Of a stretch of 14,577 nucleotides of DNA, positions 2,319 through 13,419 are shown in pieces. Position 1 is the stretch's first letter. Each line of letters begins with the position of its first letter. The position numbers and the translations under genes are program-made. The notes beneath the pieces are model-generated. The model saw nothing but the letters and a program-made list of their open reading frames with translations, made no database searches and was not told the origin of the DNA. Where the stretch lies: the UHGV virus genome UHGV-1333726; one strand, written 5' to 3'. This stretch comes from a virus.

Positions 2319-2693
2319 TTAAAACTCCGCACCAGGTAAGCTACGCGCTTTATTTACAACATCTTGTTTTAACAATAATAGTGAGTGATAATGCATGTTA
2401 AACATTCTGCAAAGTGGTGTTTCACTATTTTCTGACTTAATTTTGAATAACTGGTTTGCAGTAAAAATCATGTCGTCGTCTGTTATGTATAACCAGTCGC
2501 CGCGCTTACCAACAACAATATGAGATTTTCCCCAACTATCTTTAAATTCATAATTGCAGAAAACATCACCTTTAGGAACTTCAACAAAACAGCACGCAAT
2601 GAACTTATTGCTTTTCATGATTTTGCCCATCCGCCTTTCTGTGCTCATATATAACAAAACGGCGCTGCCTGAACAATGCCATTTCGTATACAT
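2319..2693 (-). CDS. hypothetical protein, start uncertain
   Basis: Long open frame; first ATG at 2693, other in-frame ATGs at 2648, 2630, 2618; none has a clear Shine-Dalgarno. Confidence 0.45.
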   Translation of the reverse strand: MYTKWHCSGSAVLLYMSTERRMGKIMKSNKFIACCFVEVPKGDVFCNYEFKDSWGKSHIVVGKRGDWLYITDDDMIFTANQLFKIKSENSETPLCRMFNMHYHSLLLLKQDVVNKARSLPGAEF

Positions 2694-2729
2694 TGTGATA
2701 CTAGTCACATTTTGCGCAATTAACTTTTA

Positions 2730-5365: not shown

Positions 5366-5558
5366 TGTCTTTATTCCGTCCGTAAATATGTACTGGCTCA
5401 ACCGGTACGGCTGGCAATTCACCATCATTTAACGCGCTTGCCATGCCTAATATTAAACGCGCTTCAGCACCAGTGACTTTCTTACACCATGCACCGCCTG
5501 TTTTATCTTCGAACAAGATAACAGCAAACTGATCGTTTATTTCCAGCTTATCCATCAT
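5352..5558 (-). CDS. hypothetical protein (68 aa)
   Basis: ATG 5558 overlaps the TGA of Q (ATGA); second ATG at 5555. Confidence 0.5.
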   Translation of the reverse strand: MMDKLEINDQFAVILFEDKTGGAWCKKVTGAEARLILGMASALNDGELPAVPVEPVHIYGRNKDNENT

Positions 5559-6049
5559 TCACCCCGTGTTACTCGTTTGATTTCGTTGTCAGCCCGCGCC
5601 TCTTCTTTGAACAATTCAGCAATGGCGTCTTCATAGAAAGCGCGGTATTTCTTCCACCACGTTGATCGGCTTACCGGGAAAACAAGCTGATTAACCGCCC
5701 GCCGTACAAGATCTACAGGGAAACGCGAGTACCCGCGCCCGCCGCAATGCTGGCACGTTTTGAACACTGGCATTTCCGCCGCTTCACTGGCTGCTTTATC
5801 CGGTACTTCGCCACGGCCCTTGCATTGTTTACAATGATTGCGAACTGTCCCATGCCCCTTGCATTTTTTGCAAAGGTGTTTTTCTCCGTATTCGTCAAAC
5901 GTAAATTTATATCCGCCGCACTCCATACAAGTTTTTTCCGTCGCGGCACTCTGGCAATAATCCCGAAATGCGAAAACGGCAACAAGAATAATGAGATCAT
6001 TGCGTTTGGCCTCGTCCAGTTCCATAACGTATTCATAATCTTTTGCCAT
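5555..6049 (-). CDS. Q: late-gene antiterminator Q, zinc-finger (82/QuuD-like) type
   Basis: ATG 6049 with AAGGG upstream (ORF-track start 6073 is TTG); FAFRDYCQSAATEKTC, CQHCGGRGYSRFPVDLVRRAV and C-terminal ...STWWKKYRAFYEDAIAELFKEEARADNEI resemble recalled Q82/QuuD-family motifs; position downstream of ninG/rusA/ninH-like genes fits. Confidence 0.7.
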   Translation of the reverse strand: MAKDYEYVMELDEAKRNDLIILVAVFAFRDYCQSAATEKTCMECGGYKFTFDEYGEKHLCKKCKGHGTVRNHCKQCKGRGEVPDKAASEAAEMPVFKTCQHCGGRGYSRFPVDLVRRAVNQLVFPVSRSTWWKKYRAFYEDAIAELFKEEARADNEIKRVTRGE

Positions 6050-6083
6050 AGCCCTTAAACGCTCTGTAAGCAAAACTACGGCC

Positions 6084-6206
6084 TTATGCTTTTCCTGTTT
6101 TTAAAATAGAAAGATTGGCCATTGTTATCCCTAATTCATCTGCAAGCTCACCAAGAGGTTTTTTGCGCTTGGCCATTATTACATCCAATCTTACAATTAT
6201 AGACAT
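6084..6206 (-). CDS. short NinH-like helix-turn-helix protein (40 aa)
   Basis: ATG 6206 with GGAGG 8 nt upstream; MSIIVRLDVIMAKRKKPLGELADELGITMANLSILKTGKA has an HTH-like core; small HTH gene directly before Q as for lambda ninH; manually found. Confidence 0.35.
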   Translation of the reverse strand: MSIIVRLDVIMAKRKKPLGELADELGITMANLSILKTGKA

Positions 6207-6218
6207 CTGCAGCGCCTC

Positions 6219-6362
6219 CTATATGGTTAACTTTTGTTCCTCCTGAATCTTATATCCAACCTTAAACACTTGTGCTATAAACAGAAGAGATATACCAAAT
6301 ATGCCAAGGATAACATCTACACTTAAGATTGTTTCACACTCAAACCCGTCTATAGCCAACAT
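6219..6362 (-). CDS. possible small hydrophobic peptide (47 aa), next to N run
   Basis: ATG 6362 directly after the N run 6371-6380; MLAIDGFECETILSVDVILGIFGISLLFIAQVF... has one TM-like segment; the longer ORF-track version crosses the N run. Confidence 0.25.
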   Translation of the reverse strand: MLAIDGFECETILSVDVILGIFGISLLFIAQVFKVGYKIQEEQKLTI

Positions 6363-6432
6363 CTCTATCGNNNNNNNNNNGATAAACGCGGTGATTTTGG
6401 GAAGTGGAATTTGAGAATAGATTCCAGATTCA

Positions 6433-6615
6433 TTACTTGCCCCCGTAACGCGCAACAAGTCTTTTGCGATCAGATATTGCTTGCACCAACTTTCTTTCAA
6501 GCTCTTTAAGCGCAAGCAATTCTCGCATGTGGAAAGCCTGTATTTGTCGCACAGTCTCTAAATCATGCTCATCGCGCTGAATATCTATTTGCAGATCTTT
6601 AATTTCGTTTTTCAT
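6433..6615 (-). CDS. hypothetical protein (60 aa), predicted helical
   Basis: ATG 6615 overlaps TGA of upstream gene (ATGA); heptad-like charged sequence. Confidence 0.45.
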   Translation of the reverse strand: MKNEIKDLQIDIQRDEHDLETVRQIQAFHMRELLALKELERKLVQAISDRKRLVARYGGK

Positions 6616-8044: not shown

Positions 8045-8161
8045 AATGCTCTCTCCTTTTCAGGTGATTTCTACGCATTTCAGCGCTGCCGGATTTTTAA
8101 AGAGCATTTTGTTTGCTTGAAGTATACAAAATGGATACACCAGAACAAGGCGAAAAGCGCC

Positions 8162-8181
8162 ATTATGTGATCCATATCACG
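8162..8181. promoter_or_regulatory. palindromic GATC-containing motif (candidate operator), site B
   Basis: Forward strand aTTATGTGATCcatATCACg: GTGAT-N4-ATCAC palindrome with GATC at 8169-8172, in the 159-bp gap upstream of ninF; shares TTATGTGATC-N3-ATCAC with site A at 11746-11763. Confidence 0.4.
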
Positions 8182-8203
8182 CAATGACGCCATTTTGTAA
8201 ACT

Positions 8204-8962
8204 TCAGTCCGGTAAAACGCGGTCATGGTTAGCCAGGAATACAGCACGGGCAAAGCCACGCGGTGTTAGTGAGCGGATCATCTTTGTTCGTTTCGTCCTG
8301 CCTCCGGTTTTCGCCCACCCAGGGTTATCACCAGAGTTAAGATCTACAGGTCTAAAAAGCGGCTGCCTGAATCCGTTGCCGCACCATATGCAAGTTTTCT
8401 TCGTGTACGCGTCGCGCGGTGGGTAAACATCAGGGAAAGCAGGATGCTTGTCATCTTCCGGCAGGTAGCCACCGTAAGCGCAAGGATTGAAGATAAAATC
8501 CGGTTTACGCCATAGCGTTGACAGCACACCAACAGGATTCTCCACCATCCACGGCACGTTATACATGTTAGCCAGAGATTCAACCAACATTGCGTTTCTT
8601 GCCGCCCTATTCTGAAAACAAGGATCTTTCCTGTATTTATCAACGAACCAGCGAGCGCCTGACACAGCGAGATCGTCGCATGGAGGAAAGCCCAGGATAA
8701 TGTCAGGCCCTGGATAAACAGACAATTCAGGGGAGAACATTCCCAGGAAATGGCTATCAATCCAGATGTTAACGTATTCAATATTTGGATGAATGATTTT
8801 AACGCCTTCATAATCTCCGTGATTTGCGCCGTCATAGTTGAAGCAATAGCACTTATATCCAGCTTCCGCCCAATCTTTAACGGCGTACCCGCTGCCGTCG
8901 TACAGCGACCACACCACCCAACTTCTAAGCCAATTATTTAACCAATGTTTAGCCCTGCTCAT
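8204..8962 (-). CDS. compact C5-methyltransferase-fold protein (putative DNA cytosine-5 methyltransferase-like enzyme)
   Basis: ATG 8962 overlaps TGA of upstream gene (ATGA); motif I-like LYDGSGY (res 21-27), GFPPCDDLAVSGAR (res 91-104, cf. M.HhaI GFPCQAFSISGK) and VENP (res 140-143, ENV-like) in canonical order and spacing; only 252 aa, no obvious QRR or target-recognition domain. Confidence 0.6.
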   Translation of the reverse strand: MSRAKHWLNNWLRSWVVWSLYDGSGYAVKDWAEAGYKCYCFNYDGANHGDYEGVKIIHPNIEYVNIWIDSHFLGMFSPELSVYPGPDIILGFPPCDDLAVSGARWFVDKYRKDPCFQNRAARNAMLVESLANMYNVPWMVENPVGVLSTLWRKPDFIFNPCAYGGYLPEDDKHPAFPDVYPPRDAYTKKTCIWCGNGFRQPLFRPVDLNSGDNPGWAKTGGRTKRTKMIRSLTPRGFARAVFLANHDRVLPD

Positions 8963-9462: not shown

Positions 9463-9934
9463 TTTTATGATCCTTCGGTGTATACAATAAAGCCTCTTTA
9501 TTAAACCGCCAGCCGTTACCAAGCTGGAAGCTACCATTCATTATTACTTCACCACTAGCGATTAGGTCGCCTGGTATTGAGGTTTTCTTACAGCGGCAAT
9601 TTAACGACATATCAAAATCACCCTGTTTTTTCTTTTGCTCTTCCTCCCGCTCCGCTAATATTTGCTCCGCTTTTAGCGCGTTGTAAGCAATAAGGTCTAT
9701 GAGAGTGTCGAGCGGATCGCTTCCATTGCTTAAAATGGCCTCTAATCGCGCCTCCTTGAGGCAAATCATTAGATCCCATACATCAAGCGGGGTTAAACTT
9801 GTCCCCTTCTTAGCGTTGTAAATAGTGGCTATTTTTGGCGCTGATTTTTCTTCTTTTCGATCGTATCCGTTTTGTTCTCCTCTTGCCTCGATAGTTTCAG
9901 CCGCAAGTCTCAGCAATTCAGCCGCTTTATTCAT
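9443..9934 (-). CDS. hypothetical protein (163 aa), helical N-terminal domain
   Basis: ATG 9934 with GAGGTG upstream, 2 nt after dam stop (ORF-track start 9952 overlaps dam); conserved-looking LTPLDVWDLMICLKEARL segment; no family assigned. Confidence 0.55.
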   Translation of the reverse strand: MNKAAELLRLAAETIEARGEQNGYDRKEEKSAPKIATIYNAKKGTSLTPLDVWDLMICLKEARLEAILSNGSDPLDTLIDLIAYNALKAEQILAEREEEQKKKQGDFDMSLNCRCKKTSIPGDLIASGEVIMNGSFQLGNGWRFNKEALLYTPKDHKNGKGDD

Positions 9935-10466
9935 TTTCTGCACCTCTTGCATATAGCTCTTTACGTGTTATCTGCGTGAAAATACATTCATGTCTGCATC
10001 GTGGATGCCAGATCAAGAACAAGCTCCCTTTATTGTTTCCACTTGCTGGTTTACCTGTTGCAGCATTGATAAACGCCAGCCGCCCGCGCGTGATTAATCG
10101 GCATTCGTTTGCAGTCTCCACGCCGTTCATAAACCAGCTAACAGAAATGTCAGCGGGCAACAACATCACGCAACCGATGTGATTCCGTTGATGTTCGAGC
10201 GCCGCTTTATCAATAAATGGACCCGGATTTGAGTATGGCGGATTCATCCATACATATTCGCCAGGCATTGCCACCGCTCCCCACGGATAAGTAAGCGTGT
10301 CCATTTCTTCGGTTATATATCGCGGGATTAATGCGTTTGCCTTGTTTGCCGCCACGTCAGCGACAAATTCAAACTCGCGGTCCATTCCTCTAAAAACTGG
10401 TTTAGGTGTCTGCCACAGGTCTTTAATTTCCTTCGGTGTGCTGCTGCCTCCAAAATCATTTTTCAT
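9927..10466 (-). CDS. dam: phage Dam-family DNA N6-adenine methyltransferase
   Basis: ATG 10466 with AAGGGGGG upstream; N-terminal DLWQTPKPVF...FEFVADVAA and catalytic VWMNPPYS (NPPY variant of DPPY) are signatures of the phage Dam family. Confidence 0.85.
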   Translation of the reverse strand: MKNDFGGSSTPKEIKDLWQTPKPVFRGMDREFEFVADVAANKANALIPRYITEEMDTLTYPWGAVAMPGEYVWMNPPYSNPGPFIDKAALEHQRNHIGCVMLLPADISVSWFMNGVETANECRLITRGRLAFINAATGKPASGNNKGSLFLIWHPRCRHECIFTQITRKELYARGAENE

Positions 10467-10940: not shown

Positions 10941-11114
10941 CTAAACGTCCTCAATCACACCGCCTTTCACGCGCTCTTTAATATCCCATACGTGAGGCTT
11001 GCATATTTCCTGATAATAGTGATCCGGCCTGCTGCCGAAATACCATTTGCCATCCATATAAAAATAAACGCCAGAAAAATTTCCTGGCGCTGCCTTTGTT
11101 GTCATGATATACAT
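10941..11114 (-). CDS. hypothetical protein, 5' end uncertain (abuts N run)
   Basis: Manually found frame ending TAG 10941; first ATG 11114 but frame stays open upstream into the N run 11129-11138. Confidence 0.3.
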   Translation of the reverse strand: MYIMTTKAAPGNFSGVYFYMDGKWYFGSRPDHYYQEICKPHVWDIKERVKGGVIEDV

Positions 11115-11156
11115 AGGTGCAGCCCCGANNNNNNNNNNTTCCAGTCTTTATAGTGT

Positions 11157-11351: not shown

Positions 11352-11449
11352 GCCTCACCTCATATGGTATTCAATAAACCACCTGATAAACAGGCATAAG
11401 GCAATAAAACCCCAGCAACAGCACATATAAAACAATGTATCGTCCATAA

Positions 11450-11668
11450 TTAAGCCTCAATAACACCGTAATCAAACGTGCCTAAATACCGTTCTATACT
11501 TACAACTTCAATACCATCAATGCACCGTTTCCACACAGACACCCGGCTTTCATTTTCCCGGAAGTGCATATTAGAAAGCACTTCATCGGCTGGATAGCTT
11601 TTCCCGGCGACGTAGGCATCGTGACCTACTCCACCCTCAACGCAATAAAGCATTAATTCGCGGGCCAT
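11450..11668 (-). CDS. hypothetical protein (72 aa)
   Basis: ATG 11668 with GGAGG 8 nt upstream; first gene after the 99-bp intergenic gap carrying the palindrome. Confidence 0.55.
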   Translation of the reverse strand: MARELMLYCVEGGVGHDAYVAGKSYPADEVLSNMHFRENESRVSVWKRCIDGIEVVSIERYLGTFDYGVIEA

Positions 11669-11720
11669 CTTGTTTTCCTCCGCGCCGTAAACCTTTTGAT
11701 TTCAGTTCACAAAACGGACA

Positions 11721-11763
11721 TGCGATCACAAAACAAAATGTATATTTATGTGATCGCAATCAC
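11721..11763. promoter_or_regulatory. inverted repeat plus GATC palindrome (candidate operator or RNA hairpin), site A
   Basis: Forward TGCGATCACA (11721-11730) and TGTGATCGCA (11749-11758) are perfect 10-bp inverted repeats with an 18-bp AT-rich spacer; overlapping palindrome GTGAT-cgca-ATCAC at 11750-11763; GATC at 11724-11727 and 11752-11755. Confidence 0.45.
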
Positions 11764-11767
11764 AATG

Positions 11768-12388
11768 TTAATGAAGTACGCGTTTTTCAGGTTCAGGCAC
11801 TAGCTGTGCGTCTTTCCGCGCGTCATTAAGCACAGCTATAGCTGCCTGTACACCTAAATCATTTGCGCGCATATTATTGCCAACCATTTCGCCGTAAAAT
11901 AATGGCATGATCGCCTTTACTTCTTCCTCTTTGTGCCCTTCATCAATACACTTCTGTAACGCTTTAGCCTCGAATACTTTTTTCATTACGCCGCGCACAG
12001 AATACAGCGCAACGCTACCCGTATGATTTTCATCTAACGGGAAAATAACAGCACTTCCGAACGCCAGTGGGTCAATTTCTTCCGGCACTGGTACTCGTCC
12101 AAATTCTTCTTCCATGCGTTTTACGAAAGCAAGGCAGAAGACATAACGAGCTACGGCAGTTTTTTCTTCAGCGTTTAAAGACACATAATCGCGGATCGAC
12201 GCGTCCATCATAATATCAACAATCTGCATAGCCAGGTTTAAATCAGCGTCATACGCGCCAGCTTCCATATCTTTTAATACTTCGTGATAATCCTTCGTTT
12301 CCACTTCATGAAAACTTGCATCTTCAGTGTAGCGAGTGATTAACATGCCATTGCTGCCAAGTGAATAAGCTGTTTTGATGTCGTTCAT
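11768..12388 (-). CDS. hypothetical protein (about 206 aa)
   Basis: ATG 12388 with AAGGA upstream (ATG 12397 also possible); largest unassigned ORF in window. Confidence 0.6.
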   Translation of the reverse strand: MNDIKTAYSLGSNGMLITRYTEDASFHEVETKDYHEVLKDMEAGAYDADLNLAMQIVDIMMDASIRDYVSLNAEEKTAVARYVFCLAFVKRMEEEFGRVPVPEEIDPLAFGSAVIFPLDENHTGSVALYSVRGVMKKVFEAKALQKCIDEGHKEEEVKAIMPLFYGEMVGNNMRANDLGVQAAIAVLNDARKDAQLVPEPEKRVLH

Positions 12389-12401
12389 GATGTTCATCCT
12401 T

Positions 12402-13305: not shown

Positions 13306-13419
13306 TCACATGTTAGTAATGAGTTTAATAATCGCTACCGTGATATAAAGAGATACGCTGAGATACAGCACAGCGATAGATAAAGCCGCAAGCAATGCGG
13401 CAATTTTTGCAAAGCTCAT
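13306..13419 (-). CDS. tiny hydrophobic peptide (37 aa)
   Basis: Manually found; ATG 13419 overlaps TGA of upstream gene (ATGA), GGAGGG upstream; MSFAKIAALLAALSIAVLYLSVSLYITVAIIKLITNM. Confidence 0.35.
   Translation of the reverse strand: MSFAKIAALLAALSIAVLYLSVSLYITVAIIKLITNM

Follow-up and report, generated by a model that had tools for sequence, protein, structure and literature searches.

Three gaps between genes in a 14,577-nucleotide stretch of the viral genome UHGV-1333726 (the window) contain palindromes with the core sequence recognized by the cAMP receptor protein (CRP) of Escherichia coli. These palindromes, termed sites A, B and C, are followed at fixed distances by promoter-like elements, and we give about even chances to the proposal that they are CRP-dependent internal promoters, modules of a class I-like type, of an mEp021-like prophage. 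The reading as sites of a CRP-type activator is best supported for sites B and C and weaker for site A, which had been flagged in an original prediction made from the DNA letters; for all three, the binding of CRP, the start points of transcription and the sign of the effect are predictions from the sequence. The window (14.6 kb) represents the early-to-lysis region of a temperate coliphage of the mEp021 group (mEpimmI), with 86-89% identity, and its genes are encoded on the minus strand.

CRP-type palindromes in three intergenic gaps

Site A was described as a nest of two inverted repeats, and both are present. The outer one is a perfect 10-bp repeat (TGCGATCACA at 11721-11730 and TGTGATCGCA at 11749-11758 on the plus strand) with an 18-bp AT-rich spacer; the inner one is the 14-bp palindrome GTGATCGCAATCAC at 11750-11763, whose full extent is 16 bp (11749-11764). 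The sequence ATAAAT follows directly 3' of the palindrome on the minus (coding) strand, and the site is located in the 99-bp gap between the open reading frames (ORFs) 11768-12397 and 11450-11668. The reported recurrence was likewise confirmed: the 18-mer TTATGTGATCNNNATCAC has exactly two copies, one at 8163-8180 and one at 11746-11763 (0.05 expected), and a search of the window found an exact GTGAT-N4-ATCAC at these two places only. The repeats of site A are real and non-random.

In E. coli, the CRP consensus has the core TGTGA-N6-TCACA, and the ideal site is AAATGTGATCTAGATCACATTT. The window contains the following elements of this type, together with the outer repeat arm of site A:

11749 to 11764, minus strand: palindrome of site A, TGTGA-TTGCGA-TCACA, a perfect CRP core with its centre between 11756 and 11757
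8166 to 8181, minus strand: palindrome of site B, CGTGA-TATGGA-TCACA, identical to the core at nine of ten positions
2694 to 2709, minus strand: palindrome of site C, absent from the original prediction, AAA-TGTGA-CTAGTA-TCACA, a perfect core in the gap 2619-2729 (111 bp)
11721 to 11731, minus strand: outer repeat arm of site A, TTGTGATCGCA, which holds the -35-like hexamer TTGTGA at 11726-11731, 26-31 nt from the palindrome centre

Sites A and C thus agree with the core at 10/10 positions and site B at 9/10, the value also obtained for the lac site, which was checked against E. coli genomes. When up to one mismatch was allowed, exactly three core matches were found in the window (starting at 2694, 8166 and 11749), compared to 0.31 expected. 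Three matches were reached in none of 200 dinucleotide-preserving shuffles, and a second set of shuffles agreed. Since site C also lies in a gap, all three matches are intergenic, and a random scatter of the motif over coding DNA was not seen. Two statements about sites A and B had to be corrected. Their gaps are not the only large ones, as others are present at about 13310-13415, 11352-11449, 2618-2729 and 1033-1139, and the palindrome is not restricted to two copies, because the third core at 2694-2709 is located within one of these other gaps.

The complete mEp021 genome was searched in the same way and contains seven core matches versus 1.9 expected. Five of these are located in annotated gaps, among them two divergent gaps between accessory genes of the tail region, one falls into a 37-codon ORF that is not called by PGAP in relatives, and one lies inside a gene. 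Phage lambda, used as a control, has two core matches, which is the chance level, and both are within genes.

The two tail-region matches are found at 42075 and 44001 of the mEp021 record (at about 14076 and 16002 in the stretch L014), and one of them, ATTTGTGATCTACGTCACGCTA, is followed by TTGATA-17-TATATT in the direction of gp74. Further CRP-core matches were noted near the immunity region, at 11126 and 12164 (L013 and L001).

Promoter-like layout and its conservation

The sequences 3' of the three palindromes were compared on the coding strand, with all distances given in nucleotides downstream of the palindrome centre. A -35-like hexamer is located at 26-31 in all three (TTGTGA at site A, TTGTTC at sites B and C), a CC[A/G]TTTTGT block at 40-48, a -10-like hexamer at 48-53 (TGAACT at site A, TATACT at site B, TTATAT/TATATA at site C) and a CA at 59-60. 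Over nucleotides 20-60 (41 positions) the pairwise comparisons at shift 0 gave 26, 23 and 24 matches; other shifts between -12 and +12 gave 5-19. The 17 nucleotides directly after the palindrome are of the same length at the three sites and unrelated in sequence. In lac P1, the distance between the centre of the CRP site and the -35 hexamer is likewise 26-31 nt. From the fixed spacing of the -35, -10 and CA elements the palindrome centre would be about 60 nt before the predicted start. The common register also shows that the -35-like hexamer of site A is located within the outer arm, TGTGATCGCA on the coding strand, so that the "nested" outer repeat is largely this TTGTGA together with neighbours that resemble a half-site.

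A simple consensus promoter scan listed nothing at A, B or C, and an approximate sigma-70 matrix was therefore used; its hexamer frequencies are approximate, and the ranks among 72,710 coding-strand candidates are indicative only. The predicted promoter of site B (P_B) ranked 9, that of site C (P_C) 181 and the register-matched candidate at site A (P_A) 452. A second candidate at site A, TTGTGA-17-TACATT, scored best there with rank 3. The predicted elements are:

8121 to 8148, minus strand: P_B, TTGTTC (8143-8148), 16 bp, TATACT (8121-8126), with a start at about 8114
2648 to 2676, minus strand: P_C, TTGTTC (2671-2676), then CCGTTTTGT and the AT-rich -10 region TTATATAT; the gene that follows begins at 2618
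11704 to 11717, minus strand: -10 region of site A, CCGTTTTGTGAAC (11705-11717) overlapping TGAACT (11704-11709); the predicted start is the A of CA at about 11697
11737 to 11765, minus strand: alternative promoter of site A, TTGTGA (11760-11765, the left half-site), 17 bp, TACATT (11737-11742)

Conservation was investigated in 51 loci, comprising seven phage or prophage stretches that were retrieved through DNA similarity, 38 IMG/VR contigs and additional prophages of E. coli. All are E. coli phages or prophages that are 72-97% identical, which limits the power of arguments from conservation; a search of species-representative genomes with the gp25-like protein found no more distant relatives. 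At site B the half-sites [C/T]GTGA and TCACA are invariant in 50/50 loci, and the six central bases occur in 13 forms. TATACT and the preceding GTATCCATTTTG are nearly invariant as well, and the stretches between these elements vary. Of seven genomes, three have a perfect palindrome at site C, each with a different spacer, and the others have one to three mismatches there. A mosaic junction abuts the palindrome, the upstream sequence differing right up to it, so that this palindrome is part of the mobile module. Four relatives have an ORF of about 40 codons and a predicted terminator after the module, an arrangement reminiscent of a moron; the window contains neither this ORF nor the terminator 3' of the module, and one relative lacks the module altogether.

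Site A is more variable. Its core has no mismatch in 7 loci, one in 22, two in 21 and three in one locus, and the -35-like TTGTGA is kept in 36 of the 51. In one clade a weakened palindrome (AGTGA or AGTAA; TTACA) occurs together with a -10 element that lacks the final T (TAAGCC). The hexamer TACATT of the alternative promoter retains its T, A and T in 51/51 loci, and its -35 is poor in most of them (median score 2.7). Relative to this promoter, the palindrome would be centred at about -26.5, a position of the operator type. Site A accordingly holds two weak, partly conserved promoter candidates, and a single protein bound there could switch on one of them and block the other. The palindrome could instead repress the overlapping TTGTGA-17-TACATT promoter.

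Several observations, besides the empty consensus scan, weigh against CRP-dependent promoters at these sites. The three modules may share ancestry, in which case their common register does not amount to three independent observations. The 16-bp spacer puts the palindrome centre at about -59.5, and the canonical position is -61.5. As a CRP site, site A shows only moderate conservation, with two or more core mismatches in 22/51 loci, and conservation is higher in its spacer than in its half-sites, the reverse of the pattern at site B. Its TGAACT is a weak -10 element that has G rather than A at -11 in the window; relatives have TAAACT, TGAACT or TAAGCC there, and the T at -7 is missing in about half of them. 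At site B, a hairpin loop would give the same pattern of invariant arms and a variable centre. The conserved dyad of site B is longer than a 22-bp CRP site and resembles a terminator with a U tract, which alone would explain this pattern. Finally, CRP does not account for the 13-mer CCRTTTTGTAWAC, which recurs throughout the genome.

Some of these points would also be expected if the modules were non-functional remnants of duplicated intergenic sequences, spread by recombination and similar to CRP sites by coincidence: the three may be paralogous, site A decays in about half of the relatives, and module C is absent from some. We consider this very unlikely, because the half-sites of site B are invariant in 50/50 loci amid variable neighbours, the matches are enriched and confined to gaps, unlike in lambda, and lengths are strictly kept while the intervening sequence differs.

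The 13-mer CCRTTTTGTAWAC (reverse complement GTWTACAAAAYGG) was observed in the window at 8122-8134 (plus strand), 8190-8202 (minus strand), 2679-2691 and 11705-11717. It lies over the -10 elements of sites A, B and C, and copies also directly precede the -35 elements of site C and of the strong early promoter. The mEp021 genome contains 25 matches with up to two mismatches, compared to 5.5 in shuffled sequences; nearly all are intergenic and they often form inverted pairs. The motif could be a shared extended -10 element, an operator of the repressor or of Cro, or the arms of RNA stems. Comparison by eye with the sites of IHF, Fis and OmpR gave no convincing fit.

RNA hairpins, phage proteins and Dam methylation

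Since inverted repeats can also act in the transcript, the sites were analyzed as RNA. They might form an intrinsic terminator, an attenuator or a processing hairpin of the RNase III type between gene blocks, site B being the terminator t4 and site A a weaker hairpin followed by CGUUUUGU; for the three sites together we regard this as unlikely. The region around site B has been described for mEpimmI phages: a third nut site, nutR2, is located 3' of the cytosine methyltransferase gene, and t4 is a predicted terminator (PMC11893012, section 3.5). On the coding strand of the window, the order is stop codon, GTTTACAAAATGG, the palindrome within a 15-pair hairpin with UUUU, TTGTTC-16-TATACT, a boxA-like sequence and ninF. 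The elements in addition to the palindrome and P_B are:

8157 to 8190, minus strand: extended hairpin of site B, 15 pairs with one mismatch, then UUUU; predicted terminator t4 (TERM_4 of the mEp021 record)
8094 to 8106, minus strand: boxA-like TGCTCTTTAAAAA of the published nutR2, about 8 nt past the predicted start of P_B
8071 to 8090, minus strand: small hairpin with a GAAA-type loop, between the boxA-like TGCTCTTTAAAAA and ninF, part of nutR2

A role in RNA is most plausible for this hairpin. The 91-nt region of site B folds with -36.3 kcal/mol (z = -6.7), helped by the outer stem GTTTACAAAATGG/CCATTTTGTATAC, its arms are 95-99% paired over 35 distinct sequences, and wobble positions change only to Watson-Crick pairs. 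No compensatory change was found in these 35 sequences; as the helices are almost invariant, the covariation test is uninformative at site B. Site A gave a weaker picture. Its 56 nt fold with -18.3 kcal/mol (z = -3.75) into a long, AU-rich hairpin with a 7-nt loop and a U run 2 nt after the stem. This hairpin shows weak covariation (7/500 shuffles reach the score), including a change from A-U to G-C in two sequences, but its central pair is broken in 16 of 33 sequences, and in one clade the combinations GC, AC, GU and AU occur 7, 9, 6 and 1 times, which argues that pairing is not selected. The hairpin of the palindrome itself shows no covariation in the 33 distinct sequences, 257/500 shuffles doing as well. 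As RNA, site C would form a mere 5-bp stem with a 6-nt loop. A terminator scan reported nothing at A, B or C, and Rfam gave no match in the window at the gathering threshold. Furthermore, a role in RNA leaves the fixed distance to the -35- and -10-like elements unexplained.

The terminator or processing hairpin that the original prediction had named as an alternative therefore loses ground at site A, where convincing covariation is lacking, and stays a live rival at site B by virtue of the t4 hairpin. Because the conserved dyad there exceeds the 22-bp CRP site, a terminator is a real competitor or, more likely, a function that overlaps with CRP binding. With regard to annotation, the t4 region probably also holds a promoter. 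A promoter P_B just upstream would also offer a reason for the existence of the third nut site, since its transcripts would need their own loading site for the N-like Gp17.

In the original prediction, site A was a candidate repressor operator. What holds of this is a palindrome of the kind bound by proteins, beside promoter-like elements and recurring in gaps; what is not supported is the kind of protein, as the sequence is that of a CRP core and no phage-repressor operator is recognizable in it. The palindromes could still be operators or activator sites of a phage protein, such as the CI-like Rep021, the Cro-like gp14 or a small protein that has escaped recognition, and merely look like CRP sites, a proposal to which we assign a small probability. 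The internal promoters would then be under the control of the phage's regulatory circuit. The palindromes adjoin promoter-like elements in three gaps, the high-scoring TTGTGA-17-TACATT at site A has the palindrome over its -35 and spacer in an operator-type position, mEp021 carries a partial copy, TTTGA-N6-TCACA, upstream of the leftward early promoter region, and many nearby genes encode small proteins of unknown function. On the other hand, the sites agree with the host CRP consensus at least as well as the lac site does, and further copies are located in gaps between tail-region accessory genes, a long way from the immunity circuit. For an immunity repressor, one would expect several operators at the strong early promoter, but no copy with up to one mismatch overlaps the core of this promoter, downstream of the repressor gene, in mEp021. 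When 20 proteins of the window were searched with Pfam, 17 had no match at all, and hence no recognized DNA-binding domain, and the other three matched Dam, NinG and RusA; Pfam or PHROG scans of about 25 window proteins likewise found no DNA-binding protein. Since many small proteins of this region have no recognizable fold, these results lower the probability of a phage-encoded binder without removing it. Overall, the layout is more in line with a site for an upstream activator than with an operator placed between -35 and -10, although site A may be of the operator type.

An immunity operator was also sought directly. The region of the repressor gene was compared with the sites, and no palindrome over the strong early promoter is shared with them. 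The immunity region itself (16985-17288 in L003; 10861-11217 in mEp021) contains the palindrome TTGCATCATTGCAA and the repeated CTTGCATCA, which are better candidates than the flagged palindrome for operators of the CI-like repressor.

Lastly, the original prediction had raised the possibility of sensitivity to methylation. Methylation of the GATC in the palindrome by the Dam of phage or host would alter protein binding, comparable to the switches of pap or agn43. GATC is indeed present in the palindromes of sites A and B as well as in site A's outer arm, and the phage encodes its own Dam:

9927 to 10466, minus strand: Dam methyltransferase gene (Pfam PF05869, 3e-51), context for the GATC idea and outside the element

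In addition, the dam promoter of the T1 prophage is itself regulated by CRP (PMC6737242). Conservation in relatives does not support such a switch. GATC is absent from site B in 17/50 loci, from the palindrome of site A in 8/51 and from its outer arm in 19/51, and site C has none. It is also common in the window in general (65 observed vs 53 expected), and within the sites it comes for free, being part of the flank of an ideal CRP half-site. We thus see hardly any likelihood for a Dam-sensitive switch.

Genomic setting, related systems and biological meaning

The gene order was read from the annotated records of mEp021 and prophages. It begins with anti-RecBCD and small genes, followed by gp24, gp25 (11768-12397) and the 99-bp gap with site A. 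Then come gp26 (11450-11668), gp27, the terminator t3, small genes, Dam and a cytosine methyltransferase gene (8204-8962). The gap with site B precedes ninF, the genes for NinG and RusA and the Q-like gene, and many small genes lead to holin and lysozyme. The elements next to site A on its 3' side are:

11450 to 11668, minus strand: gp26 homologue of 72 amino acids, first gene 3' of site A, phrog_28996 (unknown function), with a GGAGG ribosome-binding site upstream
11067 to 11091, minus strand: t3 hairpin, strong and intrinsic-terminator-like, 3' of gp27 and closing the gp26-gp27 pair; TERM_3 in mEp021

With the t3 hairpin after gp27, site A, gp26, gp27 and t3 have the layout of a cassette of promoter, genes and terminator. 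The Cro-like gene and the replication genes are located on the other arm of the genome, past the repressor gene. An origin of replication was considered for the repeats and rejected, as the genes for the initiator-like protein and the DnaB-type helicase are on that other arm and iterons are absent.

The Q-like antiterminator gene (5555-6433, minus strand) looks disrupted or mosaic. Residues 62-240 of the mEp021 Q protein align to 6094-5558 and residues 1-22 to 6433-6368; the 273 nt between the two blocks contain stop codons and a run of N. Two runs of exactly 10 N, masked or unresolved bases, are present in the window, at 6371-6380 and 11129-11138.

If the sites are CRP-dependent promoters, host CRP would bind the TGTGA-N6-TCACA palindrome upstream of the weak -35 in each module and, in a class I geometry like that of lac P1, recruit RNA polymerase via the C-terminal domain of the alpha subunit. 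At high cAMP, CRP would then boost three internal promoters. P_A would drive gp26 and gp27 and its transcripts would end at t3, P_B, located just before nutR2, would feed ninF, ninG, rusA and Q, and P_C would drive small genes ahead of the lysis cassette.

In class I CRP-dependent promoters such as lac P1, the CRP site is centred near -61.5 (the model of Busby and Ebright). The modules resemble this type in having the palindrome upstream of a sub-optimal core promoter, the -35 starting 26 nt from the centre. They differ from lac P1 by the 16-bp spacer with a predicted centre at about -59.5, by the extra CCRTTTTGT block over spacer and -10, and by their position inside a phage operon rather than before a catabolic operon. 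The late promoters of P2, 186 and P4 are activated by Ogr, B or Delta via a dyad TGT-N12-ACA near -55. In these phages, as in the predicted promoters of the window, a dyad precedes a weak core promoter at a constant distance, and this arrangement recurs at several promoters. The dyad of the window, however, is TGT-N10-ACA with full CRP half-sites, and the window yielded no gene for an Ogr-like zinc-finger protein. Morons are accessory cassettes of promoter, gene and terminator in temperate phages (Hendrix and colleagues). P_A, gp26, gp27 and t3 in the window have a moron-like layout, as do P_C, the short ORF and the predicted terminator in relatives, whereas P_B would feed core genes.

The closest functional precedent is the T1 prophage, in which cAMP-CRP regulates the promoters of pir, dam and recE (Laganenka et al., 2019; PMC6737242). 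Both cases would have a coliphage use host CRP to couple gene expression to carbon status at several promoters. In T1, CRP represses, as shown experimentally, whereas activation is predicted here from geometry; the phage families are unrelated, and the T1 paper defines no sites of comparable layout. The pairs PL-nutL and PR-nutR of lambda provide a parallel for site B, where the boxA of nutR2 is within about 10 nt of the predicted P_B and the N-like Gp17 could modify the transcripts. Unlike in lambda, this would be a third, internal pair of promoter and nut site, about 8 kb into the operon, in which a CRP-type site takes the place of the repressor operators. The mEpimmI paper (PMC11893012) does not mention CRP, and given the T1 precedent the three sites would represent a predicted further case of a known type of control.

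A broader proposal combines the palindromes with the 13-mer. The three modules, together with similar ones in other parts of the genome, could form a phage-wide class of promoters with two inputs, cAMP-CRP on the palindrome and a phage factor, perhaps CI-like or Cro-like, on CCRTTTTGTAWAC over the -10, and P_B with nutR2 would then link carbon status to Q and to the timing of lysis. We consider this proposal speculative and rather improbable; if true, it would explain the three nut sites of this phage family.

If CRP does act at sites A, B and C, the mEpimmI phages, a family of coliphages that is common in the gut and was described only recently, would respond to the cAMP signal of their host at several points of the early operon. 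One of these points would be the promoter-nut pair upstream of the late regulator Q, and this would account for the third nut site, which is unusual. In addition, two or three small gene cassettes may not depend on the main early promoter for their expression. The family would then offer the second experimentally tractable case, after T1, of a coliphage that senses nutrients via CRP.

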